This document shows, one piece after another, positions 10,131-47,530 of a stretch of 64,000 bases of DNA. Made by a program: the position numbers and the translations under genes. Where the stretch lies: NCBI GenBank assembly GCA_043804695.1, contig JAZDIV010000048.1, positions 5,941-69,940 on the forward strand, in the 5' to 3' direction. The notes under the pieces are model-generated. The model saw only the letters and a list, made by a program, of their open reading frames with translations, was not told the DNA's origin and ran no database searches. Within the stretch, counting starts at the first letter, position 1, and every line of letters starts with the position of its first letter. The DNA comes from PVC group bacterium. Lineage in GTDB: Bacteria > Auribacterota > Erginobacteria > Erginobacterales > Erginobacteraceae.

Positions 10131-10695
10131 TTATGCTATAAATCGTCAAGCCGGTCCGGCCATATCTCTTCGCTTGCAGCCGGCGCCAGGCGCCCGGGGG
10201 CAGGACAGGCTCCAACCCGTATAAGTGCTCGACCGCCACCAGCCCATCTTGCTGCAGGGTACCAGAACCGTCGATCCGAGACAAGATATTTTCCCCCGGG
10301 GAACCGTTCATTTCTCCGCCGGCCCGATACGGCGGGTCGGCCAGAATCAGGCCGAATCTCTCCCCACGCTCTCCCAAGCGGGCCAGCGCGGAACGCCAGT
10401 CGGCGGCCATGATCTCGCTCTCCGCCTCCCGCCCGAGGCCGGAGATATTGGCCCTGATGACTTCCAGGGCCGGGCGGTGGTTCTCCACGAAAACAACCTT
10501 CGCCGCCCCTCTGCTCAACGCTTCCAACCCCAGCGCCCCGGTCCCCGCGAAGAGATCCAGGACCCGGATCCCGGGAACCGCGCCGCCGAGGATGCTGAAC
10601 AACGCCTCCCGGACCCGGTCGGCGGTCGGACGGGTTTTCTCGCCCGGAACCGACTTCAGCTTCCGGCCCTTAAATCGTCCCGCGATGATCCTCAT
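10120..10695 (-). CDS. rsmD: 16S rRNA (guanine966-N2)-methyltransferase
   Basis: 191 aa, MRIIAGRFKGRKL start, DLFAGTGALGLEALSRGA SAM motif and DPPY motif. Confidence 0.85.
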   Translation of the reverse strand: MRIIAGRFKGRKLKSVPGEKTRPTADRVREALFSILGGAVPGIRVLDLFAGTGALGLEALSRGAAKVVFVENHRPALEVIRANISGLGREAESEIMAADWRSALARLGERGERFGLILADPPYRAGGEMNGSPGENILSRIDGSGTLQQDGLVAVEHLYGLEPVLPPGAWRRLQAKRYGRTGLTIYSIIAI

Positions 10696-10920
10696 AATAA
10701 ATTAGCGCCTCCGGCGCTAATTTAGAAGAATTGGAGTGAATTGTACCTTTTAAACGTGTAACAGACTGATAATTACCCAAGAATTAGTTTGAACGCAGCT
10801 GCTCAATAAACAACGGTAAGCCCTTAGTGTAATAAAACAAAATATTTTTTCCTGGTTGCTTTTTCGCCTGTTTCGGGAGTTCAATAATTGGATCTTTCCG
10901 ATTATTGAAATTCCGAAACA
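10696..10920. repeat. ~225 bp dispersed repeat (family 2), copy 1; begins with start-codon hairpin B and ends with A'-A palindrome
   Basis: About 95% identical to 27414-27644. Contains ttagcgcctccggcgctaa at the rsmD ATG and tgtttcgggagttcaataat...attattgaaattccgaaaca at the distal end. Confidence 0.85.
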
Positions 10921-11004
10921 TGAACTTAGCTTCGCAACTGTGGGAGGGCTTTCCAAGCCCGATAATCGGGGTTCATCGGGGCTCCATTCGTTCTGCGGCG
11001 GGCA

Positions 11005-11060
11005 CCGTTCGACGTTGGGCGTTGAACGTTGAACGTTGAACGTTCATTGTTCGATGTTCA
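11005..11060. repeat. Heptamer tandem (GAACGTT/TTSRACG) in recG 3' region
   Basis: cgttcgacgttgggcgttgaacgttgaacgttgaacgttcattgttcgatgttcat just downstream of the recG stop. Confidence 0.7.
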
Positions 11061-11067
11061 TCCCTCC

Positions 11068-13140
11068 TTACCCCACATCCCCCAGCTCGAAGTTGTCCCC
11101 GTAGCGGCGCCGGAGACGGCGGCGGACCTCCTCCAGTCCCGGATCTTTCAGCCGGGGGTCTTTTTCGAGGAGATGAAAAGCCTGCCGGCGGGCGAACTCC
11201 ATCAAACGCACATCCGCCACGATGTTCCCGATCCGGAGCTCGGGCAGCCCGGTCTGCTGGGTCCCGAAGAACTCCCCCGGTCCCCGGATCTCCAGATCCT
11301 CCCGGGCGATCAGGAAGCCGTCGTCTATATCCTTGATCGCCTGCAGGCGGCGGGCGGCATCCTCCGTCCGCGGATTGCCCTGGAGAATGCAAAAGGCGGG
11401 GTAGCGGCTTCTCCCCACCCGGCCCCGGAGCTGATGAAGCTGGGCCAGGCCGAAGCGTTCGGCGTTCTCGATCAGCATGACAGTCGCGTCCGGGATGTCG
11501 ATCCCGATCTCCACCACCACCGTTGAAACCAGGATCATCGTCTTCTGGCGGCGGAATTGCTCCATCGCTTTTTGCTTCTGATCGGACGGCAGTCGGCCGT
11601 GAATCAATCCCACCGGGATGCCGGGGAAAACCCGGCTCCGCAGGTGATCGAACATTGCGACAGCGGCTTTTAACTCCAGCCCCTCCGATTCCTCCACCAG
11701 CGGGTAGACGATAAAAGCCTGCCTGCCTTCTTCCACCTGCCGCCGGATGAAGGCGTAGGCCCGGTCGAGACGGTCGGGGCTGATCCAGTAGGTCTTCACC
11801 TTTGCCCGCCCGGGGGGCATCTCGTCCAGAACCGAAAAATCGAGATCGCCATAGACGGTCAGGGTCAGGGTCCGGGGGATCGGCGTCGCCGTCATCACCA
11901 GCACGTGCGGCTGAACTCCCTTCTGTCTTAAATCCGCCCGCTGCCGGACGCCAAATTTATGCTGCTCGTCGATCACGATCATCCCCAGGTGATGAAAGGA
12001 GACGTGCTTCTGGATCAGGGCGTGCGTCCCCGCCACCACCTGAATGGTCCCCGCCGCGATCTCTTCCAGAGCCCGTCTCCGCTGCGCCCCCTTCACCCCC
12101 GACGTCAGCAGGACCGTCCGCACCCCCAGGGGGGAGAGCTCCCGATCGATGTTGGCATGATGCTGAGCCGCCAGAATCTCCGTCGGGGCCATGATCGCCC
12201 CCTGGTAGCCGCTGTCCACCGTAGTCAAAAGAGCGCAGACGGCGACCACGGTCTTTCCGGACCCGACGTCTCCCTGGAGCAGGCGGTTCATCGCCCGCGT
12301 CCCCGTCATGTCGTCCTTGATCTCCCGGACCGCCCGCTCTTGCGCCCCGGTCAGCCGGAAAGGGAGCCGCGCGATGTAGCGGTCGCGCAGGGGCGTATCG
12401 GTCGAATGGGGCAGGCTACGCACCTGCCGGGCCCGTTTCTCCCGGCGGGATCCCAGCGCCAGCTGAAGGATGAAAAATTCGTCAAGGATCAGTCGCTTGC
12501 GGGCCTCTTCCAGCGCGGAGGGATCGGACGGGTAGTGGATGTCCCTGACGGCCCGGTGGAGAGGAACAACCCGCCACCGTTCCCGGAGATCGCCGGGGAG
12601 CAGTTCGGGACAGGCAGGAAGGCACTCATCGAGGGCCCGTTCGATAATCCCCCGCAGCATCTTCTGATTCAGCCCCTCGGTCAGGGGATAGACCGGAATA
12701 ATCCGGCCGGCCTGGCTGAGGCCGTCTCCTTCCGGCCCGAGCCGTTCGTATTCAGGGTTCACCATCTGGAGCGTGCGGTACCGATGCACCGGCCCGGTAA
12801 AGGCGGCCTCCTCTCCCTCCCGGAAGGTGTTTTCCAGGTAGGACTGATTGAACCAGATGCAGGATATTTTCCCGCTCCCGTCGGCAACCACCAGACGGAA
12901 CACCTTTTTCCCCGATCGGGTCCTGCTCAGTTCCCGGGCCAGAATGTTACCCCTGACGGTGGCAAAGTCGCCTTCCCGGAGGGCGGCGATGGGAGATATC
13001 CGGCGGCGGTCCTGGTAATTCCGGGGGAAAAAATACAGAAGGTCCTCCACCGTCTCGACGCCCAGCCGCTGGAGAAGCATCGCCCGGCGGGGGCCGACTC
13101 CCTTGAGATACTGGACGCTGTTATGTAAAGGTGACTCCAT
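11068..13140 (-). CDS. recG: ATP-dependent DNA helicase RecG
   Basis: 690 aa; wedge domain followed by DEQH helicase motifs (GDVGSGKT, DEQHKFG). Confidence 0.9.
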   Translation of the reverse strand: MESPLHNSVQYLKGVGPRRAMLLQRLGVETVEDLLYFFPRNYQDRRRISPIAALREGDFATVRGNILARELSRTRSGKKVFRLVVADGSGKISCIWFNQSYLENTFREGEEAAFTGPVHRYRTLQMVNPEYERLGPEGDGLSQAGRIIPVYPLTEGLNQKMLRGIIERALDECLPACPELLPGDLRERWRVVPLHRAVRDIHYPSDPSALEEARKRLILDEFFILQLALGSRREKRARQVRSLPHSTDTPLRDRYIARLPFRLTGAQERAVREIKDDMTGTRAMNRLLQGDVGSGKTVVAVCALLTTVDSGYQGAIMAPTEILAAQHHANIDRELSPLGVRTVLLTSGVKGAQRRRALEEIAAGTIQVVAGTHALIQKHVSFHHLGMIVIDEQHKFGVRQRADLRQKGVQPHVLVMTATPIPRTLTLTVYGDLDFSVLDEMPPGRAKVKTYWISPDRLDRAYAFIRRQVEEGRQAFIVYPLVEESEGLELKAAVAMFDHLRSRVFPGIPVGLIHGRLPSDQKQKAMEQFRRQKTMILVSTVVVEIGIDIPDATVMLIENAERFGLAQLHQLRGRVGRSRYPAFCILQGNPRTEDAARRLQAIKDIDDGFLIAREDLEIRGPGEFFGTQQTGLPELRIGNIVADVRLMEFARRQAFHLLEKDPRLKDPGLEEVRRRLRRRYGDNFELGDVG

Positions 13141-13270
13141 TAATAAATTAGCTCGCTGCGCTCGCTACTTTATAATGGACCCGATTGATTCAATCGGGGT
13201 CTGTTGGTTAATTAAGATATTTTCACCGAGGCAACAATATACAAAAGCCTTTCCAACATCAGCCAACATT
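13141..13270. repeat. ~130 bp dispersed repeat (family 3), copy 1
   Basis: taaattagctcgctgcgctcgctactttataatggacccgattgattcaatcggggtctgttggtta... also found at 43292 and 47397. Confidence 0.85.
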
Positions 13271-13458
13271 TGTCTTCCGGGATATGATTTTTCTGTTGGC
13301 TTACGGTAACCCACTCTGATTTTTTCGAAGAAAAAATCAGATTATTGAAATTCCGAAACAGCGAGATAACTTTATCCTTGTTTAACGTTCTTCCCTGTGC
13401 TAAACAAGGCTTCCTCAATCAACCGAAAAGGGATGACTTAATTAAGGATTATAACACC

Positions 13459-13686
13459 ATGTCACAAGTCTGCGCAATCTGCGGGAAGCAGCCTCATTCC
13501 GGGAACAAGATCAGCCGGCGTGGTCTGGCCAAAAAGAAAGGCGGGGTGGGAAAAAGAGTGACCGGCGTCTCCCGGAGAACATTCTTACCCAACCTTCAGA
13601 AAGTCAGGGCCGTGATCGATGGCGAGGTCGTTTCCATCCGGGCCTGCACGCAATGCATCCGTTCCGGCAAGGTTGTCAAGCCTTGA
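13459..13686 (+). CDS. rpmB: 50S ribosomal protein L28
   Basis: 75 aa MSQVCAICGKQPHSGNKISRRG... L28 family; the start is taken at an internal ATG of the longer track ORF. Confidence 0.85.
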   Translation: MSQVCAICGKQPHSGNKISRRGLAKKKGGVGKRVTGVSRRTFLPNLQKVRAVIDGEVVSIRACTQCIRSGKVVKP

Positions 13687-13791
13687 ATTTCCCCTTTCAG
13701 ATCAACTGATGTAAAAGGGGAAATGTAAACCGGGAATGCCGAAGGCATTCTGATCCAACAGGTCCCCTGTATAGCCGGGGACGAGACCGCA

Positions 13792-16527: not shown

Positions 16528-16533
16528 TATAAA

Positions 16534-16890
16534 TTAACTCCCTTCGGGTTTTCTTTCCACGGCGGAGACATTGCTGCGGTTGACCTCCAGCTTCACATTA
16601 TCGGCCACCTTGACGATGATCGTCTTTTCCTTCACGCTGCTGATGACCCCGTGAATGCCCCCCGTGGTCACCACCAGGTCTCCTTTCTGGAGTTCCGAGA
16701 CCAGCTTCTGATGCTCTTTCTGCCGCTTCTGCTGGGGACGGATCAGGAGGAAATAAAAAACGGCAAACATCAATATCAGGGGAATCAGCATCCCCCCCAG
16801 TCCGCCTTTCCCCCCTTCACCCTGCTGGCATCCCATGCCGCCGCCTTCGCCGCCTCCCGGCGCCATCGCGATTGGTATATACTGCATCAT
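16534..16890 (-). CDS. yajC: preprotein translocase subunit YajC
   Basis: 118 aa, single TM segment, then DLVVTTGGIHGVI motif. Confidence 0.85.
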   Translation of the reverse strand: MMQYIPIAMAPGGGEGGGMGCQQGEGGKGGLGGMLIPLILMFAVFYFLLIRPQQKRQKEHQKLVSELQKGDLVVTTGGIHGVISSVKEKTIIVKVADNVKLEVNRSNVSAVERKPEGS

Positions 16891-16993
16891 TGACCTCCTT
16901 TCAATATTTTTTCCTTGTTCTTGTATTCCTGTTTAACAGGTAAAGGCGTCGATAGTACTACAACCACCCGGTCAGCGCAACCCACAACCGTTC

Positions 16994-18169
<1,176 letters not shown>

Positions 18170-21154: not shown

Positions 21155-21245
21155 GAATTTGGGATTTGTGATTTGTAATTTATTTGTTATTTGGAATTTG
21201 TGATTTGTAATTTATTCCCATTAATCGCATTAACGTATTAGTTAA
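21155..21245. repeat. AT-rich tandem repeat (TTTGTGATTTGTAATTTATT x2) between ruvA and ruvB
   Basis: gaatttgggatttgtgatttgtaatttatttgttatttggaatttgtgatttgtaatttatt. Confidence 0.7.
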
Positions 21246-22068: not shown

Positions 22069-22147
22069 GTCATTGCGAGGAACGAAGTGACGAAGCAATC
22101 TTAGCCAATTTAAAAACAAGAGATTGCTTCGCTCCGCTCGCAATGAC
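22069..22147. repeat. Palindromic 'GTCATTGCGAG...CGAAGCAATCT' element, copy D
   Basis: gtcattgcgaggaacgaagtgacgaagcaatcttagcc...agattgcttcgctccgctcgcaatgac. Confidence 0.8.
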
Positions 22148-22213
22148 CATCACAAAAGATGTAATCTATTTAATGTTCTTCTTAGTAAGTCGATTATTTA
22201 AATTCCGAACACC

Positions 22214-22714
22214 TTATTTTTCCGCAGGAAAAATAGTATCGTGAAAGTACGTAATCCCCAGGGCCAGGGCGTCCGAAACATCGAATGGAGTGGGGAGCGC
22301 ATCCAGTTTCAGCAGGACCTGAACCATTTTCTGGACCTGTCTTTTATCAGCCGCGCCGTTCCCGACCACGGCTTTCTTTACCCGTCGGGCGGCATAGGTG
22401 GAGACCGGGATATCCCGCCGGGCCGCGGCCAGACTGCACACACCCCGTACCTCTCCCAGGGTTAATGTCGATCTGATGTTCTTATGATAAAAGACGTCTT
22501 CGAGAATAAATCTCCGGGGATGGTACCGCTCAATCAGTCCTTCTATTGCGGAGTGGATACGGGCCAATTTTTCCGCCGAAGTCTTCAGCCCCTTGCCGGT
22601 AATTGTACCGGCAGCCAGGAGAATTATATCTTCGCCCCGTTTCTCGAGAACGCCATAGCCGGTCACATTGATTCCAGGGTCAACGGCGATGATGCGAAGG
22701 GCATTAGGGGTCAC
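22214..22714 (-). CDS. ruvC: crossover junction endodeoxyribonuclease RuvC
   Basis: 166 aa, RIIAVDPGINVTGYG RNase H-like start. Confidence 0.9.
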   Translation of the reverse strand: MTPNALRIIAVDPGINVTGYGVLEKRGEDIILLAAGTITGKGLKTSAEKLARIHSAIEGLIERYHPRRFILEDVFYHKNIRSTLTLGEVRGVCSLAAARRDIPVSTYAARRVKKAVVGNGAADKRQVQKMVQVLLKLDALPTPFDVSDALALGITYFHDTIFPAEK

Positions 22715-23505: not shown

Positions 23506-23590
23506 AAGTGTAAAGTTTAAAGTGTAAGGTGTAAAGAATTCGCTTCTCTTGGCATTTAGACAGCAGCAGCAATCTTTACACTTTACACTT
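23506..23590. repeat. Tandem-unit hairpin, GTGTAAAG family (copy 1)
   Basis: gtgtaaagtttaaagtgtaaggtgtaaag...ctttacactttacac; related copies at 26965 and 35646. Confidence 0.75.
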
Positions 23591-23592
23591 AT

Positions 23593-23762
23593 CAGTCAGT
23601 CCATAATTATATGGACATGTCATTGCGAGGAGCGAAGCGACGAAGCAATCTCAACCCCATGCGCGGCAAGGGATTGCTTCGCGTAGTCTACCCCGATTTA
23701 TCGGGGCTCGCAATGACCGCAATCGTTGATGTAATTACTATAACGGTCGGATTAATAACACT
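23593..23762. repeat. Palindromic 'GTCATTGCGAG...CGAAGCAATCT' element, copy B (full length, inverted relative to copy A)
   Basis: agtcagtccataattatatggacatgtcattgcgagg...cgaagcaatct...ctcgcaatgaccgcaatcgttgatgtaattactataacggtcggattaataac is the reverse complement of 3250-3397. Confidence 0.85.
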
Positions 23763-26175: not shown

Positions 26176-26376
26176 AGTTAGAAACGGATTGAAATAAGTG
26201 CCTAAAGTTCAAAGTGCCTAAAGTGCCTAAAGTTAAAACTGCCCGCCGTGACTCTTGGCCGGGCGGGCCGGAACCGCCGGCGGAGCAATACTATAATTAC
26301 CGCAAGGAATGCCGAAGGCATTCCGATCCGGCAAGTCCCGGAGCGAAGCGACTGGACGATACTACATCTGTTCCAT

Positions 26377-26937: not shown

Positions 26938-26964
26938 ATAAGTTAGCGCCTCCGGCGCAACTTG

Positions 26965-27026
26965 GTGTAAAGTTTAAAGTGGAAAATGTAAGGGATCTTT
27001 ACACTTTACACCTGACACTTTACACA
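26965..27026. repeat. Tandem-unit hairpin, GTGTAAAG family (copy 2)
   Basis: gtgtaaagtttaaagtggaaaatgtaagggatctttacactttacacctgacactttacac. Confidence 0.75.
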
Positions 27027-27107
27027 GCTGTATTGAAATTCCGAAGCAGCAAGTTAGCGCCTCCGAAGCTGCTAATGATATTATTTTTGCACAGCAAAAA
27101 TAATAAC

Positions 27108-27413: not shown

Positions 27414-27644
27414 TATAAATTAGCGCCTCCGGCGCTAATTTAGAAGAATTTGGAGTGAATTGTACCTTTTAAACGTGTAACAGACTGATGATTACCCAAG
27501 AATTAGTTTGAATGTAACTGCTCAATAAACAACGGTAAGCCTTGAGTGTAATAAAATAAAACAAAATATTTTTTCCTGGTTGCTTTTTCGCCTGTTTCGG
27601 GAGTTCAATAATCGGATCTTTCCGATTATTGAAATTCCGAAACA
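27414..27644. repeat. ~225 bp dispersed repeat (family 2), copy 2
   Basis: Near-identical to 10696-10920; carries hairpin B at the ABM gene's ATG and an A'-A palindrome distally. Confidence 0.85.
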
Positions 27645-27833
27645 GGCACGTTAGCTCACGCATTAGATACTACAAAGCATACTCTCACGTCAATAAAACA
27701 AACGTACGGGCGGCACGTGGTGGAGAAAAAAGCAGGACTTCCGTTACATAAAAAAACCAGATAGACGAATCTATCCGGGAAAAAAGATTACTACAGCCAC
27801 AGTTTAAGAGAGAGAGACTGTGTAACAGTTTAA

Positions 27834-28091: not shown

Positions 28092-28221
28092 AGCTTTATT
28101 TCCTTTTGTTATTTATCGGCAATTATTATGGCTTAAACTTAAAATTTTAACAAGATATTTTTAATCGGACATAAAATAAGGGAGTGATTGCGCATTTTCG
28201 AAGAAAATGCGCAAAAAAATA

Positions 28222-28339
28222 GCCCCGCGGCAACCTACTCTCCCCCCCAGTCTCCCGGGAAGTACCATCGGCTCAGAAGGGCTTCACGACCGTGTTCGGG
28301 ATGGGAACGGGTGTTTCCCCTTCGATATGGCCACGGGAC
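28222..28339 (-). rRNA. rrf: 5S ribosomal RNA
   Basis: Reverse complement reads GTCCCGTGGCCATATCGAAGGGGAAACACCCGTTCCCATCCCGAACACGGTCGTGAAGCCCTTCTGAGCCGATGGTACTTCCCGGGAGACTGGGGGGGAGAGTAGGTTGCCGCGGGGC. 5' and 3' ends pair as helix I. Confidence 0.9.
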
Positions 28340-28522
28340 TAATTTTTTCGCTTCGCGAAAAAATTATTGTTATCTCAAGCCAACAATTTCTCCACGAAGC
28401 ACAAATAAATTAAGGTCAGTATCTTGTCTGTTAACTACTTCAAAAAGCTTCGGCGGGGATCTTAAACTATTTTATTTATCCCTCCCCGGAACGAACGTTC
28501 CGGGGAGGGAAAATAAAATATA

Positions 28523-31591
<3,069 letters not shown>

Positions 31592-31691
31592 AGTAAATAA
31601 TAATTTACCGATCTGCCTCGACTTCTTGCAGTACTCAAGACTTCCCGGAGGACAGACACTGCTCCCCCGGAATGCCTCAAGACCCTGACCT

Positions 31692-31707
31692 CAATTGTCA
31701 AAGAACA
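31692..31707 (-). promoter_or_regulatory. boxA-like antitermination element in the tRNA-Ala to 23S spacer
   Basis: Minus strand TGTTCTTTGACAATTG; matches E. coli boxA TGCTCTTTAACAATTT. Confidence 0.6.
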
Positions 31708-31745
31708 TAAAATTTTTCCGTACCGGAAAAATTTTATTAATAAAA

Positions 31746-31818
31746 TGGAGCTGAGGGGTTTCGAACCCCTGACCTCAGGCTTGCAAAGCCCGCGCTCTCC
31801 CAGCTGAGCTACAGCCCC
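31746..31818 (-). tRNA. tRNA-Ala (anticodon TGC)
   Basis: Reverse complement GGGGCTGTAGCTCAGCTGGGAGAGCGCGGGCTTTGCAAGCCTGAGGTCAGGGGTTCGAACCCCTCAGCTCCA; G3:U70 identity pair present. Confidence 0.92.
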
Positions 31819-31923
31819 TTAAAATTTTTTCCGAAGAAAAAATTTTAAGGACACATTACCATACCAGACATTTAATCAAAAGAGCAAATATCCAACAATA
31901 CTTCGCATCAGTCCACTCAGACA

Positions 31924-31997
<74 letters not shown>

Positions 31998-32235
31998 TTA
32001 TTTTTTTGCTCCGCAAAAAAATAATGTGTAGCGCCTTCGTCGCTACCAATTCTAATTCAAGGCGTTGATCTCAATTATCAAATCTTTATATAGATCCCGC
32101 TGAATATATTTTTTATTACGACGCAAAGCGTCGTAATCGCCTTTTTATTTCCTCCGCCGTTTTCCCTTGGAAAACGGCGGAGGAATATAAAAAGAATGGC
32201 AAGACGGGTCCAGCACGGAAGCCGTTGCTACTCTT

Positions 32236-33836
<1,601 letters not shown>

Positions 33837-33882
33837 GATTAAGAATTGATCCGGCTTCCGTACTGGAGCCCGTCTTACCATT

Positions 33883-33898
33883 CAATTGTCAAAGAACA
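33883..33898 (-). promoter_or_regulatory. boxA-like antitermination element in the 16S leader
   Basis: Minus strand TGTTCTTTGACAATTG, identical to the copy at 31692-31707. The adjacent leader pairs with the 16S trailer (ggtaagacgggctccagtacggaagccgg pairs with ccggcttccgtgctggacccgtcttgcc at about 32190-32218). Confidence 0.6.
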
Positions 33899-35278: not shown

Positions 35279-35289
35279 CTATAAATTAG

Positions 35290-35465
35290 CGCCTTCGGCG
35301 CAACTTGGTTACGGCCAGGGTAACGATGCCCGTTTCGGCAAAGGTAACGGTAACGGCCACTCCGCCTGGCGCACGTAACCGTAACCGGCAGACGAAACCC
35401 CGATAAATCGGGGCAGGCTGGGCCTCGTAACCGTAACCGTAGCCGTTATTGAAATTCCAAAGCAG
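35290..35465. repeat. ~170 bp dispersed repeat (family 4, GTAACGG-rich), copy 1
   Basis: ggttacggccagggtaacgatgcccgtttcggcaaaggtaacggtaacggcc...gtaaccgtaaccgtagccgttattgaaattcc; about 85% identical to 38812-38960. Confidence 0.85.
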
Positions 35466-35468
35466 GAA

Positions 35469-35607
35469 CTTAGCCCTCACTTCGCTCGGGCGACTAAATA
35501 AAACTACGAATTACGCGAATTACACGAATTTTCTTTAAAATATCCCTGCACTGTCGGTTCAATGCTTGCACATTCTTATTTTTCCGGAGGAAAAATAAGA
35601 TTATTGA
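35469..35607. repeat. ~135 bp dispersed repeat (family 5), copy 1
   Basis: ctacgaattacgcgaattacacgaatt...gttcaatgcttgcacattcttatttttccggaggaaaaataag; second copy at 44153-44300. Confidence 0.8.
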
Positions 35608-35645
35608 AATTCCGAAACAGCAAGTTAGCGCCTCCGGCGCAACTT

Positions 35646-35700
35646 GGTGTAAAGTTTAAAGTGTAAGGAATCTTTACACTTTACACCTGACACTTTACAC
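35646..35700. repeat. Tandem-unit hairpin, GTGTAAAG family (copy 3)
   Basis: gtgtaaagtttaaagtgtaaggaatctttacactttacacctgacactttacac. Confidence 0.75.
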
Positions 35701-35917
35701 AGCTTTATTGAACTCCCGAAACAGGGAATGAGCGCCTTCGGGGATGACTTCTATTCCGGCAAAGGTTGGGGTGATTACTTCCAAAATGGATATCGGATTA
35801 TCAGCATATCAGTGGGAAGGACATCAGGAACTTAGGAGAACAGGTAAGGGCTCGGCCTCGCCTGATAATCTGATATCCTGAGGCCCTTCCCACAGATATG
35901 CTGATTCCCTGGTATCC

Positions 35918-37756: not shown

Positions 37757-37960
37757 CCGGGGACAACCGCCGCGGTTGCGCCGGCCGCTAGGACGACCGG
37801 CGGGGTTGTGTTATTTTTGCCGCCCCGGCAAAATCGGGGCGGTAAAAACAACGGTGTATTTTTGAGCCAAAGGGGGCGGAGGATAGCACCGGAGCGTTTC
37901 TGAGTCAATATCTAACTGGATTCGGTGTCCGACAATTGTCCGCCTATGATAAATGACGAA

Positions 37961-38108
37961 ACTCGAATGTCGAATGACGAAAGAATGACAAATTTAAAAT
38001 GACCAATGACGAACCCTCCCCGCCTGGGTGATGGGTTTATTTGTCATTAGACATTCTTTCGGCATTCGTTATTCGGATTTCGTCATTCGTCACTCATTCC
38101 TCATTGCG
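37961..38108. repeat. Tandem-unit hairpin, GAATGACGAA family (copy 1), between cmk and rpsA
   Basis: Left arm aaatgacgaa / gaatgtcgaa / tgacgaa units; right arm cattctttcgg / cattcgtt / atttcgtcattcgtc. Confidence 0.8.
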
Positions 38109-38811: not shown

Positions 38812-38960
38812 TCAGTGCCTTCGGCGCAACTCGGTTACGGCAAGGGTAACGATGCCCGTTTCGGGAAAGGTAACGGTAACGGCCGCCCCGCTTGGCGCAC
38901 GTAACCTTAACCGGCAGACGAAACAGGCCTCGTAACCGTAGCCGTAGCCGTAGCCGTTAT
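38812..38960. repeat. ~150 bp dispersed repeat (family 4), copy 2
   Basis: Begins with degenerate hairpin B (gtgccttcggcgcaac) at the cmk ATG, then ggttacggcaagggtaacgatgcccgtttcgggaaaggtaacggtaacgg...gttattgaaattccg. Confidence 0.85.
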
Positions 38961-39971: not shown

Positions 39972-40004
39972 TGAAATCTCACATTGAGTTAATTGCCCAA
40001 AGAG

Positions 40005-40143: not shown

Positions 40144-41136
40144 TCATTTCTCCACGATGCTCTCCCTGATCTTCGTCCCGAAGTGCCTTCCCCCCTCCTC
40201 AAAGTATGCCATCACCTCGTCACCTTTTTTCAGCGCCGCCACCGAGACCGGCCGGCCGGAAGGGCGGACCAGGCGGATGGTCTCCGCGTTCTGGAGGATC
40301 AGGCTGACCTCGCTCTTTTTCGCTTTCGCCTTTACCAGGAGCATCGGGCGTTTCTCCACTTTCGTCCGGCCGACAATGGCCGGCCGGGTCACTCCCCGGA
40401 AAGTCACCGCGAGCACCTCGCTCCCGATCGCGATCTCGGAGAGATAGCAGGTTTTTCCGTCCGGGAGCAGGGTATAGGCGTGGATGCCCCCGGCATTGAC
40501 CCGGAAGGGACGGGGAGCCACATAGGGGTTCCTGACGCTCTCGGCGTGGACCAGAAAGAAAGCCGAACCGGTGTTCCCCACCAGCATCCCCTCCCCCGGG
40601 CCCATTGCGGTGCAGGTGTCGACACAGACCCGGTCGCCCAGACCGAGTTCCCTGATCTCCGTGACCCGGGCCGGGGACGGAGCCAGTTTTTCCCGGGCGC
40701 CCTTGACCAGGTTGATGATCGCCCCGATCACCGCCGGATCCGCATTTTTCACCACCACCCCGGCAACGCCCTTTTCCAGGATTCCCAGGGCGGTCCGGGC
40801 CGCGGAGAGACTTTCCACGCGTGCCATCACCGCCCCCGATCGGGCGATGATATTTTCAAGCGGGATGATCTTCCAGTTCCCTCCGGAGACGATCACCGTC
40901 TTGCCCTTGCCCAGGGCCAGGATCCTGTCTTCGTCCGCCTGTTTTTTGATCTCGATCTCGACCACCGCCCTTCCCATTTTCAGGTCGCCGTCCGGACCGA
41001 CCGTGGTCAGCCTCCCCAGCTCCCGGACCGCTCCGGTCTTGCCCCGGGGGACGATGACTGCATCGGCGCCGTTTTCCAGGGCGGTCAACACCTTCTTCTT
41101 CGACCAGGGGCGGCAGTCTACCCATACTTTTTTCAT
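40144..41136 (-). CDS. aroB': 3-dehydroquinate synthase II (archaeal-type, AroB')
   Basis: 330 aa; strong resemblance to the DHQS-II family: MKKVWVD...W start, GDRVCVDTC, ENPYVA.RPFRVNAG, ILQNAETIRLV. Confidence 0.85.
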   Translation of the reverse strand: MKKVWVDCRPWSKKKVLTALENGADAVIVPRGKTGAVRELGRLTTVGPDGDLKMGRAVVEIEIKKQADEDRILALGKGKTVIVSGGNWKIIPLENIIARSGAVMARVESLSAARTALGILEKGVAGVVVKNADPAVIGAIINLVKGAREKLAPSPARVTEIRELGLGDRVCVDTCTAMGPGEGMLVGNTGSAFFLVHAESVRNPYVAPRPFRVNAGGIHAYTLLPDGKTCYLSEIAIGSEVLAVTFRGVTRPAIVGRTKVEKRPMLLVKAKAKKSEVSLILQNAETIRLVRPSGRPVSVAALKKGDEVMAYFEEGGRHFGTKIRESIVEK

Positions 41137-41165
41137 TAATCTTACCTATTTAGCCACCAAGACAC

Positions 41166-41345
41166 TAAGGCACCAAGGAAATAATTAGGAAGAGCGCCTA
41201 AAAAGAACTAATATGAAACGACGTGCCTGAAGTTGCAGTAATCTAATTCCTATTAGACGCGACCGCATGGGCCGGAATTATAATCATCCCGTAGCCCTGG
41301 CGTCATTACTTTACTCTTTTCTTCGTGCCTTGGTGCCTTGGTGGC
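41166..41345. repeat. Tandem-unit hairpin, CCAAGGCAC family
   Basis: Left arm ccaccaagacactaaggcaccaagg, right arm cgtgccttggtgccttggtgg, with a ~130 nt loop. Confidence 0.7.
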
Positions 41346-41347
41346 AT

Positions 41348-42145
41348 TTATTTTTTCTCCAGCAGTTGCATAGCCTCGGAAATGGACTTGTTCTCATGGA
41401 CCAAAAGATCGATGGACTTGATGATGGCGATCGGGTCTTCATGCTGGAAGACGTTTCTGCCGATGGAGACGCCACAGGCGCCCGCCTCCAGCGCCCCCCG
41501 GACCATGGCGAGCAGTTCCCGGTCGGTCTCCATCTTTTCCCCGCCCGCGATCACCACCGGGACCGGGCAGCCGGCGATCACCTCCCGGAAGCTCTCCGGA
41601 GTGCCGGTGTAATTAACCTTGACGATGTCCGCCCCCAGCTCCGCCCCGACCCGGGCGGCATGCTTGACGTACTTGACGTCGAACTGGTCCGTGATCCCTT
41701 CGCCCCGGGTGTACATCATCGCCAGCAGCGGCATCCCCCAGTCCCGGCAGTTCCTGGCCACGGTTCCCATGATTCCGAGCATCCGGCTGTCGGTCGGCGC
41801 GCCCAGGTTGACGTGGATGGAGACCGCGTCGGCGCCGAGCCGGACCGCCTCCGCCACCGTGCAGACCAGCACTTTGTCATGGGGATCGGGGCTCAAAATC
41901 GTGCTGGCGGAGAGATGGATGATCAGACCCACATCCTTGCCGCGCCCCCGATGTCCGGCCTTGACCATCCCCTTGTGCATGATGATCGCATTTGCCCCTC
42001 CGTTGACCACCCGGTCGATGGCCCGGCTCATGTCGGTCAAACCCGGGATCGGACCCAGAGTGATGCCATGGTCCATGGGGATGATGATGGTCCGGGCCGA
42101 GTCCCGGTTCATGATCCGTTCCATCCTGATTTCTTTGCCAACCAT
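41348..42145 (-). CDS. aroA': 2-amino-3,7-dideoxy-D-threo-hept-6-ulosonate synthase (ADH synthase, AroA'; DhnA-type class I aldolase)
   Basis: 265 aa; near-collinear with archaeal ADH synthase (PMDHG, GANA...[37 protein letters not shown], Schiff-base Lys region). Confidence 0.85.
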
Positions 42146-42226
42146 TTTCTTCTCCTCCCTTCAACATCAATACTGAATTATTATCCTGGAGAGATCATAC
42201 ATGTTTCCTGAATCCAATAGTTTATT

Positions 42227-43291: not shown

Positions 43292-43425
43292 TTTATAAAT
43301 TAGCTCGCTGCGCTCGCTACTTTATAATGGACCCGACTGCGTCGGGTCTGTTGGTTAACTAAGATATTTTCACCGAGGCAACATTATAAAAAAGCCTTAT
43401 AATCTCAGCCAACATTTACCCCATG
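43292..43425. repeat. ~130 bp dispersed repeat (family 3), copy 2
   Basis: ataaattagctcgctgcgctcgctactttataatggacccgactgcgtcgggtctgttggttaactaagatattttcaccgaggcaacat... Confidence 0.85.
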
Positions 43426-43486
43426 GAATATAATTTATCTATCGGTTTCAAAAATACCATTCTTATTTTTTCGCCCCGCCCCGAAG

Positions 43487-44149
43487 TTACACGTTCGACG
43501 CCGGACGTTCATCCTTTTCTTCTGAATTCTGACTCCCGACTTCTGGCTCCCGACTCCCGACTTCCGATTCCTCGCTTCTCAGGTCGCTGCTGGAGGCAAT
43601 CTTTTTCGCCGTCGGCCGCTCCCTCGATTCCAGGGAAGGCAGATCGGCGAGAGAGTTGAGCCCGAAATACTCCAGAAACATCCGGCAGGTCCGGTAGAGG
43701 TAAGGGCGCCCCACGACTTCCTTCTGCCCTGCTATCTTGATCAGTTCCCGTTCCAGCAAGCTCTTCAGGATGCCGTCCACGCTCACGCCCCGGATCAGTT
43801 CAATCTCGGTCTTGGTGATCGGCTGCTTGTAGGCGATGATCGCCAGGGTTTCCAGCGCCGGTTTGGAGAGATGCACCGTCCGGCGGGTCTGGTAGAGTTT
43901 CCTGATCCAGGGGGCATAGACATCCCTGGTCCTCAGCTGGTAGCCGTTGGCCACCTTCCTGATCGAGAAACTCCTCCCCTCTTCCTCGTATTCACGCTCC
44001 AGGTCCGTCAAAACCTCTTTCACGCTCTCCCCCTCCTGCCATATCCCTCCGGTCATCTCCTCCAGCCGGGAGGGGGGAAGGGGCTCCGAGGCAACGAAGA
44101 GAATCGCTTCCACCACGCGCTTTAAATCAAGCTGTTTCTTTATACCCAT
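43487..44149 (-). CDS. scpB: segregation and condensation protein B
   Basis: 220 aa; ScpB winged-helix pair (VEAILFVASEPL...). Confidence 0.88.
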   Translation of the reverse strand: MGIKKQLDLKRVVEAILFVASEPLPPSRLEEMTGGIWQEGESVKEVLTDLEREYEEEGRSFSIRKVANGYQLRTRDVYAPWIRKLYQTRRTVHLSKPALETLAIIAYKQPITKTEIELIRGVSVDGILKSLLERELIKIAGQKEVVGRPYLYRTCRMFLEYFGLNSLADLPSLESRERPTAKKIASSSDLRSEESEVGSREPEVGSQNSEEKDERPASNV

Positions 44150-44152
44150 ACA

Positions 44153-44300
44153 TTAGCTCACTCCGCTCGGGCAATTCAATAGAACTACGAATTACGCGAA
44201 TTACACGAATTTACTTTAAAATAAGTCAACGATATTAGTTCAATGCTTACACACTATTATTTTTTAGCCCCGAGCCAAAGTATTAATCGGGGGAGAAAAA
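44153..44300. repeat. ~140 bp dispersed repeat (family 5), copy 2
   Basis: ctacgaattacgcgaattacacgaatttactttaaaataagtcaacgatattagttcaatgcttacacactattattttttagccccgagcc... Confidence 0.8.
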
Positions 44301-44309
44301 AATAATACA

Positions 44310-45041: not shown

Positions 45042-45052
45042 TATAAATTAGC

Positions 45053-46051
45053 TCAGAATTTGATTGCTGCCCGTACCAGCTCCATGGTCTCGGCGGCGGC
45101 GGAGCGGGCCCGGGCCGCGCCTTCTGCCAGCACGTCCTCAATCCGGTGATCCCGGAGCCAGTAGTTTCGCTGTTCCTGAAGCGGCTCTAAAAACCTGATC
45201 AGGGCGCCGGCCAGGCAGTTCTTGCACTCCGTGCATCCCCGCTTCGCGTTCCGGCACCAATCCTCGACCTCCGGCAGCATCCCGGCGTTGAGAAGCCGGT
45301 GATAGGCAAAGACGGTGCAGTCCTCCGGATGGCCCGGATCCCGGAGCCGGATCCGGCGGGTGTCGGTTATCATCCCCCCGACTTTGTTCCGGATCACTTC
45401 CGGCGGATCGGCCAGGGCGATAAAATTGTCGTAGCTCTTGCTCATCTTCCGGTTATCCAGACCCGGCAGCCTCGATGACGCGGTGAACAGGGGCCGGGGC
45501 TCCGGGAAAACGGGCGCATACAGGTTATTGAAGCGCCGGGCGATCTCCCGGGTCAGCTCCAGGTGCGGGACCTGGTCAATCCCGACCGGCACCGCCGTCG
45601 CCCGGTAGATCATGATGTCCGCCGCCTGGAGGACGGGATACCCCAGGAAACCATAGGTCAGAAGGTCTCTCCCCCTGATCTCCCTCAGCTGCTCCTTGTA
45701 CGTCGGACACCGCTCCAGCCACGGCAGGGGGGTCAGGGACGACAGCAAGAGGTGCAGCTCGGCGTGTTCTTTCACGTCGGACTGGACGAAGATAGTGCTT
45801 CTTGCCGGATCGAGCCCGGCGCTGAGCCAGTCGGCGGCACATTCCCGGACATATTTCCTGATCAGGCCGGGGTTTTCATACTCGCTTAAAAAAGCGTGCC
45901 AGTCGGCCACCATGTAAAAACACTGATATTCGTCCTGGAGCGAGACCCAGTTGAAGAGAGCGCCGAAGAGGTGCCCGAGATGGAGAGGCCCGGTCGGCCG
46001 CATCCCGCTTAAAATTTTTCTTCGAAAAATCTTATTATTATCTTTTTCCAT
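45053..46051 (-). CDS. trpS: tryptophan--tRNA ligase
   Basis: 332 aa; MRPTGPLHLGH (HIGH) and KMSKS motifs. Confidence 0.9.
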   Translation of the reverse strand: MEKDNNKIFRRKILSGMRPTGPLHLGHLFGALFNWVSLQDEYQCFYMVADWHAFLSEYENPGLIRKYVRECAADWLSAGLDPARSTIFVQSDVKEHAELHLLLSSLTPLPWLERCPTYKEQLREIRGRDLLTYGFLGYPVLQAADIMIYRATAVPVGIDQVPHLELTREIARRFNNLYAPVFPEPRPLFTASSRLPGLDNRKMSKSYDNFIALADPPEVIRNKVGGMITDTRRIRLRDPGHPEDCTVFAYHRLLNAGMLPEVEDWCRNAKRGCTECKNCLAGALIRFLEPLQEQRNYWLRDHRIEDVLAEGAARARSAAAETMELVRAAIKF

Positions 46052-46085
46052 AAATAAACCCGGAATTATTGAGTCTCCGTTTATA

Positions 46086-47396
46086 TCAATGCTTTTTTAA
46101 CTTGTCAACCAACTGATGAGCCAACCTGAGTTCTTCTTCCCGCGACCGAACCATACCGTCGAGGCGGGCGGCGAGCAGCTCGTGCAGGATCCTTTTGTAT
46201 GCCGGCCCCGGGGGCAGACCGAGTTCTTTCAGGTCTTCGCCCCCCACCTCGCCCGCGGCCGACCGGTAGCCGCTCAGGTAGGTTCTGATCCGGCGGTCGG
46301 ACTCATCCGAGCCGATCCGGGACATGATAATCAAAACGATCTCCGGGGAGCGCCCCTGGAGGAGGAAGAAAATCCGGCTGGGCGGGACATCATCCGGGGA
46401 AGACAACACCCGGGCGATCTCCCTTGCGTCTTTTTTCCCGGCCAGCAGCTGATCGAGGTACTGCCGGGACAGATTGAACTTCTCCCCGGTCCGGGCGGTA
46501 TCAGCCGCCGAGAGGGGGACCAGGAGGGCGCCGAAGTACAGCCGGAAACGGCTGACATCCTCAGCGGGAAAGGCCCGCCTGAACCAGTCGTGATTCCGAT
46601 TGACCCGGTCCAGAAGAGCCGCCAGTTCCCGGGAGTAGGCAAGACGGGGGTGGATAAACCGGAGTTCGTCATACCGGGCCATGGCGGCGACCGCGGACGG
46701 AGGATCCGGCTCCCGGAAGATCAGTTCCAGCTCATGCCGCAGCCGTTCCGGAGACACCTTCTCGAAGAGCCGGAGATCGACCGCGGTCCTCATCAGCTCT
46801 TCCGTCCGCGGCTCGATCATGAAACCGAGCCGCTGCTGGAAACGGACGGCCCGGAAAATGCGGGTCGGATCATCCCGGAAGCTCCGCTCGTGCAGCACCC
46901 TGATAACGCGGGCCCGGAGATCGGCCAGCCCTCCGCAGAGATCGATCAGCCGGCCGAACCGCCCCTCGTTCAGAGAGAAGGCCATGGCGTTGATGGTGAA
47001 GTCCCTGCGGAGCAGATCCTCTTTCAGCGATCCGGGCAGGATCCGGGGGAGAGCTCCGGGCTCGGGGTAATATTCCTCCCGGGTGGTGGTGACATCAATC
47101 TTGATCCCGCCGGGCATGATCACCAGGGCGGTGGCGAAGCGTCGATAGAGCTTATAACAGCCGCCGACCGAGCGGGCGAATTCGCGGGCGAACTGGAGAC
47201 CATGAGCCTCGACCAGGATGTCGAGGTCGAAGTTGTCTCTTCCCCCTTCCAGCAAGTCCCGCACCGAGCCGCCCACGCAGAAGACGTTCCAGCCCCGGGC
47301 ATCGGCAAAGCGGCCGATCATACGCAGGATTTTTATCAGGCGGGGAGACAGCCTCTCGCTGATGATCGGGTTCAGGTCAATTGATTCATCCATCAT
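46086..47396 (-). CDS. tRNA nucleotidyltransferase (CCA-adding) / poly(A) polymerase family protein
   Basis: 436 aa; class II NTase head GGSVRD...DxD and RDFTINAMA; no HD domain evident. Confidence 0.75.
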   Translation of the reverse strand: MMDESIDLNPIISERLSPRLIKILRMIGRFADARGWNVFCVGGSVRDLLEGGRDNFDLDILVEAHGLQFAREFARSVGGCYKLYRRFATALVIMPGGIKIDVTTTREEYYPEPGALPRILPGSLKEDLLRRDFTINAMAFSLNEGRFGRLIDLCGGLADLRARVIRVLHERSFRDDPTRIFRAVRFQQRLGFMIEPRTEELMRTAVDLRLFEKVSPERLRHELELIFREPDPPSAVAAMARYDELRFIHPRLAYSRELAALLDRVNRNHDWFRRAFPAEDVSRFRLYFGALLVPLSAADTARTGEKFNLSRQYLDQLLAGKKDAREIARVLSSPDDVPPSRIFFLLQGRSPEIVLIIMSRIGSDESDRRIRTYLSGYRSAAGEVGGEDLKELGLPPGPAYKRILHELLAARLDGMVRSREEELRLAHQLVDKLKKH

Positions 47397-47530
47397 ATTA
47401 ATTAGCGCCTTCGGCGCTACTTAATAGCGGACCCCGATTGATTCAATCGGGGTCTGTTGGTTAACTAAAATTCTTACATCGATTCGCCATTATACAAAGG
47501 CCCCATAACCTCAGCCAACTTTTATTCTTG
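47397..47530. repeat. ~130 bp dispersed repeat (family 3), copy 3
   Basis: ttaattagcgccttcggcgctacttaatagcggaccccgattgattcaatcggggtctgttggttaactaaaattc... Confidence 0.85.

Follow-up and report, generated by a model that had tools for sequence, protein, structure and literature searches.

Why should functionally unrelated genes of one bacterium carry the same small hairpin directly in front of their start codons? The question is raised by a 64,000-nucleotide stretch of a PVC group bacterium of the Auribacterota lineage (contig JAZDIV010000048.1, positions 5,941 to 69,940; hereafter the window). An earlier reading, made from the sequence only, described in it a G+C-rich hairpin, here called hairpin B, upstream of the ATG of a number of minus-strand genes, and suggested a portable module with a ribosome-binding site in its loop. 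The analysis described here leads to a modified proposal, to which we give a probability of about one half: that hairpin B is the 3'-terminal stem-loop of mosaic, mobile leader cassettes specific to the Auribacterota, and acts as RNA to provide a start that is independent of a Shine-Dalgarno (SD) sequence.

The presence of this hairpin at start codons is real, and far beyond chance. All the sites listed by the sequence-only reading are present on the minus strand and its written consensus is correct, although it spoke of at least seven genes and listed six. At each listed site the type-1 core, GCGCC-GRA-GGCGC, is on the gene strand, and forms five G+C pairs around a loop. The loop, given as 3-4 nt, is 3 nt (GGA or GAA), and because of this the suggested search string, TTAGCGCCNNNNGGCGCTAA, has an extra base and gives no match even when three mismatches are allowed. 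Nor is the stem made up of 7-8 bp of G+C: it has the five G-C pairs and 2-7 A-T pairs, sometimes with a bulged T. The A-T extension comes in two variants, TAAATTA...TAATTTA, which gives a perfect 12-bp stem (rsmD, ABM), and AAGTT...T-AACTT, with a single bulged T (efp, tyrS). Between the element and the ATG are 2-4 A/T-rich bases. There are six exact copies of the core, GCGCCGRAGGCGC, in the window, all of them intergenic and on the minus strand, and four of these abut a start codon. With up to two mismatches there are 23 matches, compared to 8.3 ± 2.9 in shuffled sequence (none of 100 shuffles reaches 23), and CTAATTTAT occurs seven times, where 0.14 would be expected.

The intergenic regions of the window are long, and are assembled from recurring modules. 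These are motif A (GCTGTTTCGGAATTTCAATAA on the gene strand), long hairpins made from word arrays, AT-rich triloop hairpins of 12-14 bp, and other palindromes. The arms of the long hairpins consist of tandem 7-9-nt words and their reverse complements (GTGTAAA, GGTTACG, GACGAAT and others). In one layout, found at efp, tyrS, cmk and many genes of the metagenome-assembled genome (MAG) MFD02416.bin.2.262, an optional hairpin B is followed by motif A, a long hairpin, hairpin B and the ATG. In another, found at recG, pheA and cca, the order is promoter, hairpin, hairpin B and ATG. As noted previously, the copies at about 27054-27075 and at 35622-35645 precede motif A and have no start codon.

The suggestion that the module is portable is well borne out by near-identical cassettes at unrelated genes. 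The 230-nt unit common to rsmD and ABM is nearly identical in the two except for one 5-nt indel; it starts at motif A, right after another B-like 3' end, and ends at GCTAATTTAT. A 119-nt block with 91% identity is common to tyrS and cmk, while recG and pheA share 48 nt at 96% and 75 nt at 77%. Finally, recG, pheA and cca have a common promoter-leader cassette (13197-13271, 43344-43418 and 47450-47524), with an invariant TTAGTTAACCAACAGACCCC and a co-varying hairpin, GACCCCGATTG-AAT-CAATCGGGGTC; this leader is also present in three other Auribacterota MAGs. The repeat families of the rsmD/ABM unit are 94-100% alike.

A second type of hairpin can take the type-1 position within one and the same cassette. 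Type 2 has the layout xxxx-GA-GC-GNA-G(C/U)-GA-xxxx, with tandem G.A pairs and an alternation of G-C and G.U. It is not a palindrome at the DNA level, GA being opposite GA, and its G.A and G.U pairing is possible on the sense strand only, with the sense fold 1.6-3.6 kcal/mol more stable than the antisense one. The common denominator of the two types is thus a sense-strand stem capped by C(GNA)G and followed by TAAYTT. Of the variant sites reported earlier, recG and pheA do have the form TAGC-GAGCGCAGCGAG-CTA, scpB has only a related form, and scpA has only GCTAATTTATA; the third copy of the recG/pheA variant family is a related form 5' of a response regulator gene. The AU-rich tail, TAATTTATA-ATG, is found without a hairpin at two tight gene junctions, scpA (TGAGCTAATTTATA-ATG) and secDF (GTTAATTTATA-ATG), and for this reason it is the tail that may be the actual initiation context.

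A covariance model was built from 55 copies. Besides the six window copies it recovers the variants at recG and pheA, a copy in inverted orientation at 62392-62422 and, in relatives, 14 variants that were not in the seed. The variant copies carry compensatory changes from G-C to A-T (TTAACGCC...GGCGTTAA) and from C-G to G-C (GCGGC...GCCGC, twice), and also an added pair (GCGACC...GGTCGC), a change from A-T to T-A (TTTGCGCC...GGCGCAAA) and one G.U pair. Their loops are GGA, GAA, GCA, GTA and, once, GGG. The flanks covary as well: AAGTT is found with TAACTT, AATTA with TAATTT, and AATGA with TCATTT. These changes indicate that the hairpin is constrained as a structure, and not as a sequence. In folding predictions for six native contexts, it is present in both the minimum-free-energy (MFE) and the centroid structure, with z = -0.4 to -5.4, and the stretch from the hairpin to the AUG is open in most of them. 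A search with Rfam covariance models found only rRNA and tRNA above threshold, and nothing over the cassettes even at E ≤ 0.5.

In order to see where else the element occurs, KTWGCGCCGRAGGCGCTAAYTT was searched for in one genome per species from 185,579 species, giving at least 68 loci. Among the matches listed, all but four single, evidently chance ones fall in four MAGs: MFD02416.bin.2.262, DRR093004_bin.13, Candidatus Euphemobacter frigidus and Candidatus Tritonobacter lacicola. The last two represent separate classes of Candidatus Auribacterota, a candidate phylum of the PVC group, and among these matches the hairpin is therefore restricted to one phylum. The paper describing the Auribacterota MAGs makes no mention of repeats, hairpins or promoters.

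The context was then classified for 70 distinct core sites with adequate flanks, from the window and the Auribacterota loci. At 34 of them an ATG that opens an open reading frame (ORF) of at least 80 codons lies 6-14 nt past the core (mode 9), and at six more the distance is 20-24 nt, in most cases with a canonical AAGGAG/GGAGG separating the two. Not one of the 70 has a start within 32 nt on its antisense side, and random positions give 6%. The hairpins are thus far from randomly placed with respect to start codons, and the outcome named by the sequence-only reading as its own refutation, random placement, is not what is seen. Of 20 downstream ORFs sampled, 19 are real and unrelated genes, whose Pfam alignments often begin at residues 1-4. 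They include SecA, threonyl-tRNA synthetase (ThrRS), threonine synthase, PhoH, NDK, NAD kinase, glutathione synthetase, FtsW/RodA, glycosyltransferases and an M48 peptidase; the portability seen in the window extends to the relatives, where the motif is adjacent to the start of SecA, ThrRS, NAD kinase, FtsW and others. At one locus (L040) two convergent genes 3.8 kb apart each have a hairpin in their own orientation. The polarity of the hairpin follows the gene, and not the chromosome strand.

The cassettes turn over between relatives. The window is syntenic with a contig of MFD02416 (about 80% nucleotide identity) and with one of Euphemobacter (74-80%), which suggests that it comes from an Auribacterota genome. 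The coding sequences are about 80% identical and gene order is kept; the orthologous intergenic regions cannot be aligned, and cassettes are swapped or absent. Thus the tyrS leader of the window has a type-1 hairpin with a GAA loop behind a GGTTACG hairpin, and that of locus L031 a type-1 hairpin with a GGA loop behind a TACACTT hairpin; L070 has a type-2 form, L071-L073 a degenerate form, and L069 the word array only. The cmk leader is a full cassette in the window and a plain SD in L031, where the cassette is absent. For pheA, the type-2 hairpin of the window corresponds to a minimal GCGAAGC in L031, an AT-rich hairpin in L070, and a plain SD in L072 and L073. The promoter cassette of cca corresponds in L069 to motif A, a word array and a decayed hairpin B. 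Because the cassettes are alike within one genome (91-100%) and not conserved between genomes, and because the module types persist across classes, we regard them as mobile or recombining. No single copy is essential, and what is maintained is the architecture. One repeated context was considered as the end of an insertion sequence and rejected: at three loci (L032, L048 and L062, on MFD02416 contigs 47319, 47322 and 47323) a 6-7 kb region, 96-99.9% identical, is repeated across adjacent contigs, and these are probably strain or assembly variants rather than a mobile element.

The most specific claim of the sequence-only reading, that the loop is the SD sequence of these genes, is poorly supported. 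On this account the hairpin would present or mask a ribosome-binding site formed by the loop and first stem bases (GGAGG or GAAGG). It is true that the 3' end of the 16S rRNA is canonical (GGAUCACCUCCUUU) and carries CCUCC, that rsmD and efp have no SD-like sequence other than GGAGG, whose distance is a constant 11-12 nt, and that GGA loops are enriched in start-adjacent copies (28/34, against 20/36 in the others); this enrichment may equally reflect which cassette family is common. But the middle base of the loop is free. Copies with GGA read GGAGG and those with GAA read GAAGG, while GCA, GTA and the type-2 hairpins, which occupy the same position, have no complementarity. The ABM gene has a canonical SD of its own (GGGGAGGG), as do several genes of relatives, and in six copies a separate canonical SD follows the hairpin. 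AGGAGG-type sequences are present at about a quarter to a third of the other genes in the window, the strong ones mostly 5-7 nt from the ATG (range 3-10), whereas the GGAGG/GAAGG of the hairpin genes is 11-13 nt away, outside the spacing of about 4-9 nt expected of an SD. Moreover, only 3 nt of it are unpaired, in a stem of -9.5 to -16 kcal/mol. We consider this explanation very unlikely.

The hairpin and the ATG are too close together for a promoter to fit between them, and the hairpin is therefore either transcribed with the gene or overlaps its transcription start site (TSS). Three observations place it in the RNA: predicted promoters lie 20-80 nt 5' of it (TTGGCT-18-TATAAT, TTGTCT-17-TATTAT), five start-adjacent copies fill short intercistronic spacers between genes on the same strand, and a B-like copy is found in the rRNA spacer. 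Promoters of sigma-70 type are in use here, since the same scan recovers the rRNA and rpsA promoters. Among 32 sites that do not belong to the main word-repeat cassette families, no fixed promoter (TANNNT or a -35 sequence) was found directly 5' of the hairpin. Other promoter assignments were tried and rejected. TAAYTT lies too close to the ATG, at 0-6 nt, to be a -10 box of leaderless transcripts, and a sigma-54 site made up of hairpin B and motif A has its GG-N9-GC spacing off by one. A GCGCC-UUC-GGCGC hairpin at a distant rpsA locus (L079), past a TTGACA-17-TAATAT promoter, has no TAA flanks and was judged unrelated.

On the basis of these observations, we propose that each cassette consists of motif A, word-array long hairpins, other hairpins and, in some families, a sigma-70 promoter, and that it ends in hairpin B and an AU-rich tail, TAAYTTRTA, which abuts either the start codon or a canonical SD. 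The hairpin would be transcribed, in a 5' untranslated region (UTR) or an intercistronic spacer, and would work as sense-strand RNA. The C(GNA)G-capped stem would close off the structured leader, leaving about 9 nt of AU-rich sequence and the AUG single-stranded, as a start region for SD-independent initiation of the S1, AU-rich or standby type. Probably, the hairpin would also guard the message from 5'-end-dependent decay or mark a processing point. We infer its action as RNA, and its effect on stability or translation, from sequence and predicted folding. A more specific version, which we think rather unlikely, is that it is a dedicated, phylum-wide RNA signal, spread by leader recombination at the hairpins, in which a factor reads the C(GNA)G stem and the UAAYUU tail. 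This factor would be either an endoribonuclease acting at the stem base, as Cas6/Csy4 do in engineered insulators, or a ribosome platform, and the outcome would be mRNAs with short, SD-free leaders, that is to say a mobile, standardised expression adaptor.

Several observations weigh against an RNA element with a function at the start codon. Adjacency to a start is the majority pattern and not a rule: about nine of the 70 sites precede motif A (seven by the classifier, and L053 and L057), up to 11 abut the stop codon of a convergent gene, one copy in the window is inverted relative to both its neighbours, and the remainder of the 70 fall in no clear class. Type-1 copies are rare in the close Antarctic relatives (L069-L075), and any given gene can therefore do without the hairpin. 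Formal scoring gives a modest value for covariation, in part because a repeat family copies a few alleles; the ungapped alignment also misreads the bulged class. Folding of whole intergenic regions, tried as a test of selection at the RNA level, was set aside because it gives only a small bias to the sense strand (-2725 against -2587 kcal/mol, with 284 against 225 G.U pairs). In addition, the GNA triloop with a closing C-G pair is familiar above all from DNA, as a hairpin of exceptional stability, and this would fit a role in single-stranded DNA just as well.

This last point leads to the possibility that hairpin B is selfish DNA, namely the terminal hairpin of a non-autonomous element of the repetitive extragenic palindrome (REP, or REPIN), palindrome-associated transposable element (PATE) or MITE (miniature inverted-repeat transposable element) type, mobilised as single-stranded DNA by an HUH or other transposase. 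Its position at starts would then reflect target preference and purifying selection on tolerated insertions. The idea is a doubtful one, though it deserves some weight. It would account for a dispersed family with copies 91-100% identical, for the presence, absence and swapping of cassettes at orthologous loci, and for units that run from one B-like 3' end to the next, with hairpins in direct orientation like the ends of IS200/IS605-type elements. Some copies have a bulged T and a GTAG head, and C(GNA)G is a classic ultra-stable DNA mini-hairpin. However, an element inserted 0-6 nt from an ATG would push the SD away and should be strongly deleterious unless it supplies a start function, and yet the hairpin is most often in just this context. 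Even in the convergent neighbours of L040, its polarity is that of the gene and not of a replication strand; neither target-site duplications nor terminal inverted repeats were seen; and the same cassette families persist across the classes of the phylum. A crude search for HUH/Y1 motifs in about 680 kb of sampled DNA from the lineage gave no candidates, which is weak evidence because its power is low. A selfish single-stranded-DNA element whose ends have been co-opted would in any case be compatible with an RNA stem-loop at the start.

The remaining readings are each weakened by specific tests, as is that of the loop as an SD. With its A-rich flank, G+C stem and U-rich tail (AAAUUA-GCGCC-GNA-GGCGC-UAAUUUAU), the element could be a weak, bidirectional intrinsic terminator or attenuator, which would end upstream units or throttle read-through into the gene. 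The palindrome does come with both an A and a T tract, one copy (tyrS) is picked up by a lenient terminator scan, the copies abutting convergent stop codons are suitably placed, and the position between predicted promoter and ATG is that of an attenuator. We nonetheless regard this as improbable. The tail is interrupted (UAAUUUAUA), and with the A-U extension paired almost no U tract remains; only one window copy is called terminator-like. Most copies lie 6-14 nt before a start, including divergent and promoter-proximal ones, rather than at 3' ends, and an efficient terminator 3-9 nt before the ATG would silence efp, tyrS, SecA and ThrRS. No conserved antiterminator pairing was found, termination has no need for strict GNA polarity, and there is a B-like copy inside the rRNA operon transcript. 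To a double-stranded DNA operator for a global dimeric regulator or nucleoid protein, with half-sites TTAGCGCC and TTAGC...GCTAA ends like those of CIRCE (controlling inverted repeat of chaperone expression), we give next to no credence. The inverted repeat is perfect, its TTAGC/GCTAA ends are conserved, and it lies between promoter and start, as CIRCE does. Against this, compensatory half-site changes and an inserted pair keep the pairing and not the sequence, type 2 is no palindrome at the DNA level, the loop has a strict polarity (40 against 0), and there are an estimated hundreds of copies per genome in the lineage, at unrelated genes.

Table 1. Positions of hairpin B, its variants and associated modules in the window.
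Feature	Position	Strand	Remarks
Type-1 hairpin, rsmD	10698-10724	-	TAAATTAGCGCC-GGA-GGCGCTAATTTA, 12-bp perfect stem; TT, then ATG 10695-10693; 50.8 bits (covariance model); -15.9 kcal/mol
Type-1 hairpin, efp	26940-26963	-	AAGTT-GCGCC-GGA-GGCGC-T-AACTT, bulged T; AT, then ATG 26937-26935; present in MFE and centroid folds
Type-1 hairpin, ABM gene	27416-27442	-	Same sequence as rsmD copy; TAAGGGGAGGGTATCAT (canonical SD), then ATG 27398
Type-1 hairpin, tyrS	35283-35306	-	GAA loop; ATAG, then ATG 35278
Type-1 hairpin, cca	~47397-47426	-	GAA loop; last module of promoter-leader cassette; ATG 47396; predicted leader folding z = -5.4
Degenerate type-1 hairpin, cmk	38815-38830 (core 38815-38827)	-	GTTGCGCCGAAGGCAC; first ATG 3 nt past hairpin, next in-frame ATG 21 nt past
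Type-1 hairpin with motif A	35601-35645	-	Hairpin 35622-35645, motif A 35601-35621; no adjacent start
Degenerate hairpin B with motif A	27030-27075	-	TTAGCAGCTTCGGAGGCGCTAA; 5' of long hairpin and efp hairpin; E = 4.9, weak
B-like hairpin, 16S-23S spacer	32028-32046	-	GTAGCGAC-GAA-GGCGCTAC; 5' of AT-rich hairpin and tRNA-Ile
B-like hairpin, polarity exception	62392-62422	+	TAAATTTGCGCC-GCC-GGTGCTAATTTA; opposite to both flanking genes; 26 bits (+), 16.5 (-)
Minimal form	10922-10938	-	AGTT-GC-GAA-GC-TAAGTT, then motif A; left boundary of rsmD cassette
Type-2 hairpin, recG	13142-13174	-	TAGC-GA-GC-GCA-GC-GA-GCTA, ATTTATTA, then ATG 13140; E = 0.01
Type-2 hairpin, pheA	43294-43326	-	Cassette as at recG and cca; ATG 43291
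Type-2-like hairpin, scpB	44150-44174	-	TTGCCCGAGCGGAGTGAGCTAATGT; abuts ATG 44149
Type-2-like hairpin, response regulator leader	48669-48694	-	AATTTGC-AAGCGAAGTGA-GCAAATT; SD AAGGAGG, then ATG 48648
Type-2 hairpin with motif A	35446-35497	-	TTAGTCGCCC-GAGCGAAGTGA-GGGCTAAGTT
3' flank alone, scpA	45042-45052	-	GCTAATTTATA between trpS stop codon and scpA ATG; no hairpin
Tail-like stretch, secDF	16528-16538	-	GTTAATTTATA abuts ATG and includes stop codon of upstream gene; no full hairpin
rsmD leader cassette, 230 nt	10697-10925	-	Motif A to end of hairpin B; repeated at 27415-27649 (ABM)
Long GTGTAAA-word hairpin	26964-27029	-	5' of efp hairpin; same module at 35646-35700
Predicted sigma-70-type promoter, pheA cassette	43383-43412	-	TTGGCT-18-TATAAT; would put hairpin B ~50 nt into 5' UTR
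Predicted sigma-70-type promoter, cca cassette	47489-47518	-	TTGGCT-18-TATAAT
Promoter-like site, response regulator	48716-48744	-	TTGTCT-17-TATTAT; ~20 nt 5' of type-2 hairpin
Motif A	10902-10930, 13342-13370, 22194-22222, 27030-27058, 27626-27654, 35446-35474, 35601-35629, 35705-35733
Word arrays, 7-9 nt	7897-7936, 11012-11044, 21157-21213, 23506-23536, 26196-26243, 37952-38092, 43531-43571, 56895-56931, 60055-60094
AT-rich hairpins	4743-4771, 13315-13341, 22215-22235, 27079-27105, 28188-28214, 28340-28366, 31707-31737, 31998-32024, 35574-35600, 47566-47596, 54615-54643, 56128-56148		TTATTTTTCC-NNN-GGAAAAATAA
Nested-palindrome repeats	3310-3350, 4928-4968, 22091-22131, 23641-23681		GTCATTGCGAG...CGAAGCAATC...GATTGCTTCG...CTCGCAATGAC

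Motif A is nearly always 3' of a B-type hairpin, and pairs with an inverted copy of itself in the cassettes of rsmD and ABM. It carries GGAAUUU, which resembles an RNase E-type site, and its first 9 nt resemble the E. coli boxA; both are leads only. An assignment of motif A as an rrn-type boxA was rejected, because the boxA of the rRNA operon in the window, GTTCTTTGACAATTGA, aligns with it unconvincingly. Word arrays and their reverse complements often form a long hairpin, and orthologous spacers in relatives have different words in the same place. The AT-rich hairpins are a second hairpin family, with stems of 9-14 bp and 3-nt loops. They flank every RNA gene in the rRNA operon, and two of them (54615 and 56128) are directly 5' of an SD or ATG, like hairpin B. 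A family of nested-palindrome repeats is also present.

The rsmD/ABM-type leader can be aligned over about 130 nt across genomes (L064, L050, L024, L039, L052, L020, and window positions 10726-10860 and 27444-27580). It has conserved blocks (GTTGGAT...ACT..., ATCAATCT and AATTCACTAAA) between variable stretches, and could be a structured RNA or a promoter that is not of the sigma-70 type. In a comparison with the MFD02416 copies, homologous over these 130 nt, neither a promoter nor a known RNA could be assigned.

The genes of the window are mostly housekeeping genes on the minus strand, and its G+C content is 49-63% in 2-kb windows. NCBIfam and Pfam confirm the gene names given earlier (rsmD, efp, ABM-like protein, tyrS, cmk, cca, recG, pheA, rpsA and response regulator, and also trpS, scpA, scpB, tyrA, 3-dehydroquinate (DHQ) synthase II, EF-G and SecDF). 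There is one rRNA operon (28222-33835, with tRNA-Ile and tRNA-Ala), which has a TTGACA-17-TATGGT promoter at 34025-33997 and two copies of the canonical boxA, at 33882-33897 and 31691-31706 on the minus strand, each with a hairpin before it. At 40144-42145 on the minus strand, adjoining pheA and tyrA, are genes for an archaeal-type DHQ synthase II and a DeoC-family aldolase, which suggests the alternative (ADH) route into the shikimate pathway. The gene for an FG-GAP repeat protein (60389-62362, minus strand) is internally repetitive at the DNA level, with repeats of 120-156 nt. The NiCo riboswitch aptamer gives a match below threshold at 8575-8670 on the plus strand (30.3 bits against a gathering score of 37, E = 0.0097); this is antisense within a minus-strand ORF, and is probably due to chance.

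If our proposal is correct, a candidate phylum has standardised the last 30 nt before many of its start codons, using a mobile module that replaces the SD. This would be a natural counterpart of synthetic 5'-UTR insulators and a clear case of regulatory DNA spread as cassettes. It would also offer a way to test, in an uncultured PVC lineage, how initiation proceeds without an SD and how mRNA is processed, and it would provide a compact part for predictable expression. Even with no known function, the motif is a lineage-specific sequence signature, which flags true start codons and the boundaries of transcription units in Auribacterota MAGs.

The known systems closest to the cassettes, in function as in architecture, are mosaic interspersed repeats, putative mobile promoters and 5' stabiliser hairpins. 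The cassettes resemble the BOX elements of Streptococcus (boxA-boxBn-boxC) and the REP sequences of bacterial interspersed mosaic elements (BIME), in that all are short interspersed intergenic repeats of interchangeable modules with predicted RNA stem-loops. BOX and BIME are co-transcribed with neighbouring genes, and REP/BIME are mRNA stabilisers. For boxA and boxC, a stimulating effect on the expression of downstream genes is reported (PMC3049150). In sequence hairpin B is not related to any of these elements, and unlike BOX or BIME it has a fixed C(GNA)G terminal module 0-6 nt (plus tail) from the start, has strict gene polarity and is kept across classes, whereas REPs are found mainly at 3' ends and in both orientations. 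The 5' GTAG head typical of REP and REPIN is present in few copies, most having TTAG or GTTG, and flanking hairpin copies are direct, and not inverted as in REPIN doublets. The 230-nt unit likewise lacks the marks of a MITE, being bounded by motif A and the end of hairpin B, with no pair of terminal inverted repeats and no duplication. Correia elements (Neisseria) and enterobacterial repetitive intergenic consensus (ERIC) sequences or intergenic repeat units (IRU) are small mobile repeats near genes, whose hairpin transcripts alter mRNA processing or stability and which sometimes bring promoters. They have terminal inverted repeats, TA target duplications and a variable spacing to the start, none of which is seen for hairpin B. 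An effect of ERIC is mentioned in PMC3049150.

Putative mobile promoters (Matus-Garcia et al. 2012, PMC3488235) are upstream regions of at least 50-100 nt, with at least 80% identity, found at non-homologous genes of one genome. The rsmD/ABM, tyrS/cmk and recG/pheA/cca cassettes fall within this definition, and one cassette family does carry a promoter-like site, TTGGCT-18-TATAAT. Putative mobile promoters are however defined by similarity only, while here one structured module closes cassettes of different families, and this suggests a post-transcriptional part that they have in common. In this respect hairpin B can be likened to 5' stabiliser stem-loops, such as the ompA leader and the 5' stabilisers of Bacillus, and to engineered 5'-UTR insulators. 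In these, a stable hairpin 5' of the initiation region protects the mRNA and decouples the start from what lies upstream. They are gene-specific or synthetic, whereas hairpin B is repeated, mobile and genome-wide, and not necessarily at the 5' terminus (the predicted TSS is 15-80 nt upstream).

Other likenesses are more limited. The d(GCGAAGC)-type mini-hairpins with a GNA triloop, a physico-chemical motif of phage origins and other DNA rather than a genetic element, have the same apex, a C-G pair closing G-N-A, and the window copy at 10922-10938 is literally GCGAAGC; this likeness is silent on whether RNA or DNA is the active form of hairpin B. The short tandemly repeated repetitive (STRR) heptamers of heterocystous cyanobacteria are intergenic tandem arrays of 7-nt words, as in the window. 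The words differ, and those of the window, unlike STRR, pair with reverse complements into long hairpins joined to motif A and hairpin B. The CIRCE element, the HrcA site upstream of chaperone operons, has the consensus TTAGCACTC-N9-GAGTGCTAA; here the spacer is 3 nt and not 9, the inner bases differ, and the genes are unrelated housekeeping genes. An integron attC site (RYYYAAC...GTTRRRY) was rejected because the order is reversed (GTT...AAC) and the flanked genes are syntenic core genes, and a dif-like site because the order of its core motifs is wrong. What is new in hairpin B is the combination: a terminal module defined by its structure and common to several cassette families, which is locked to the start codon, strictly polar, and conserved across a candidate phylum.

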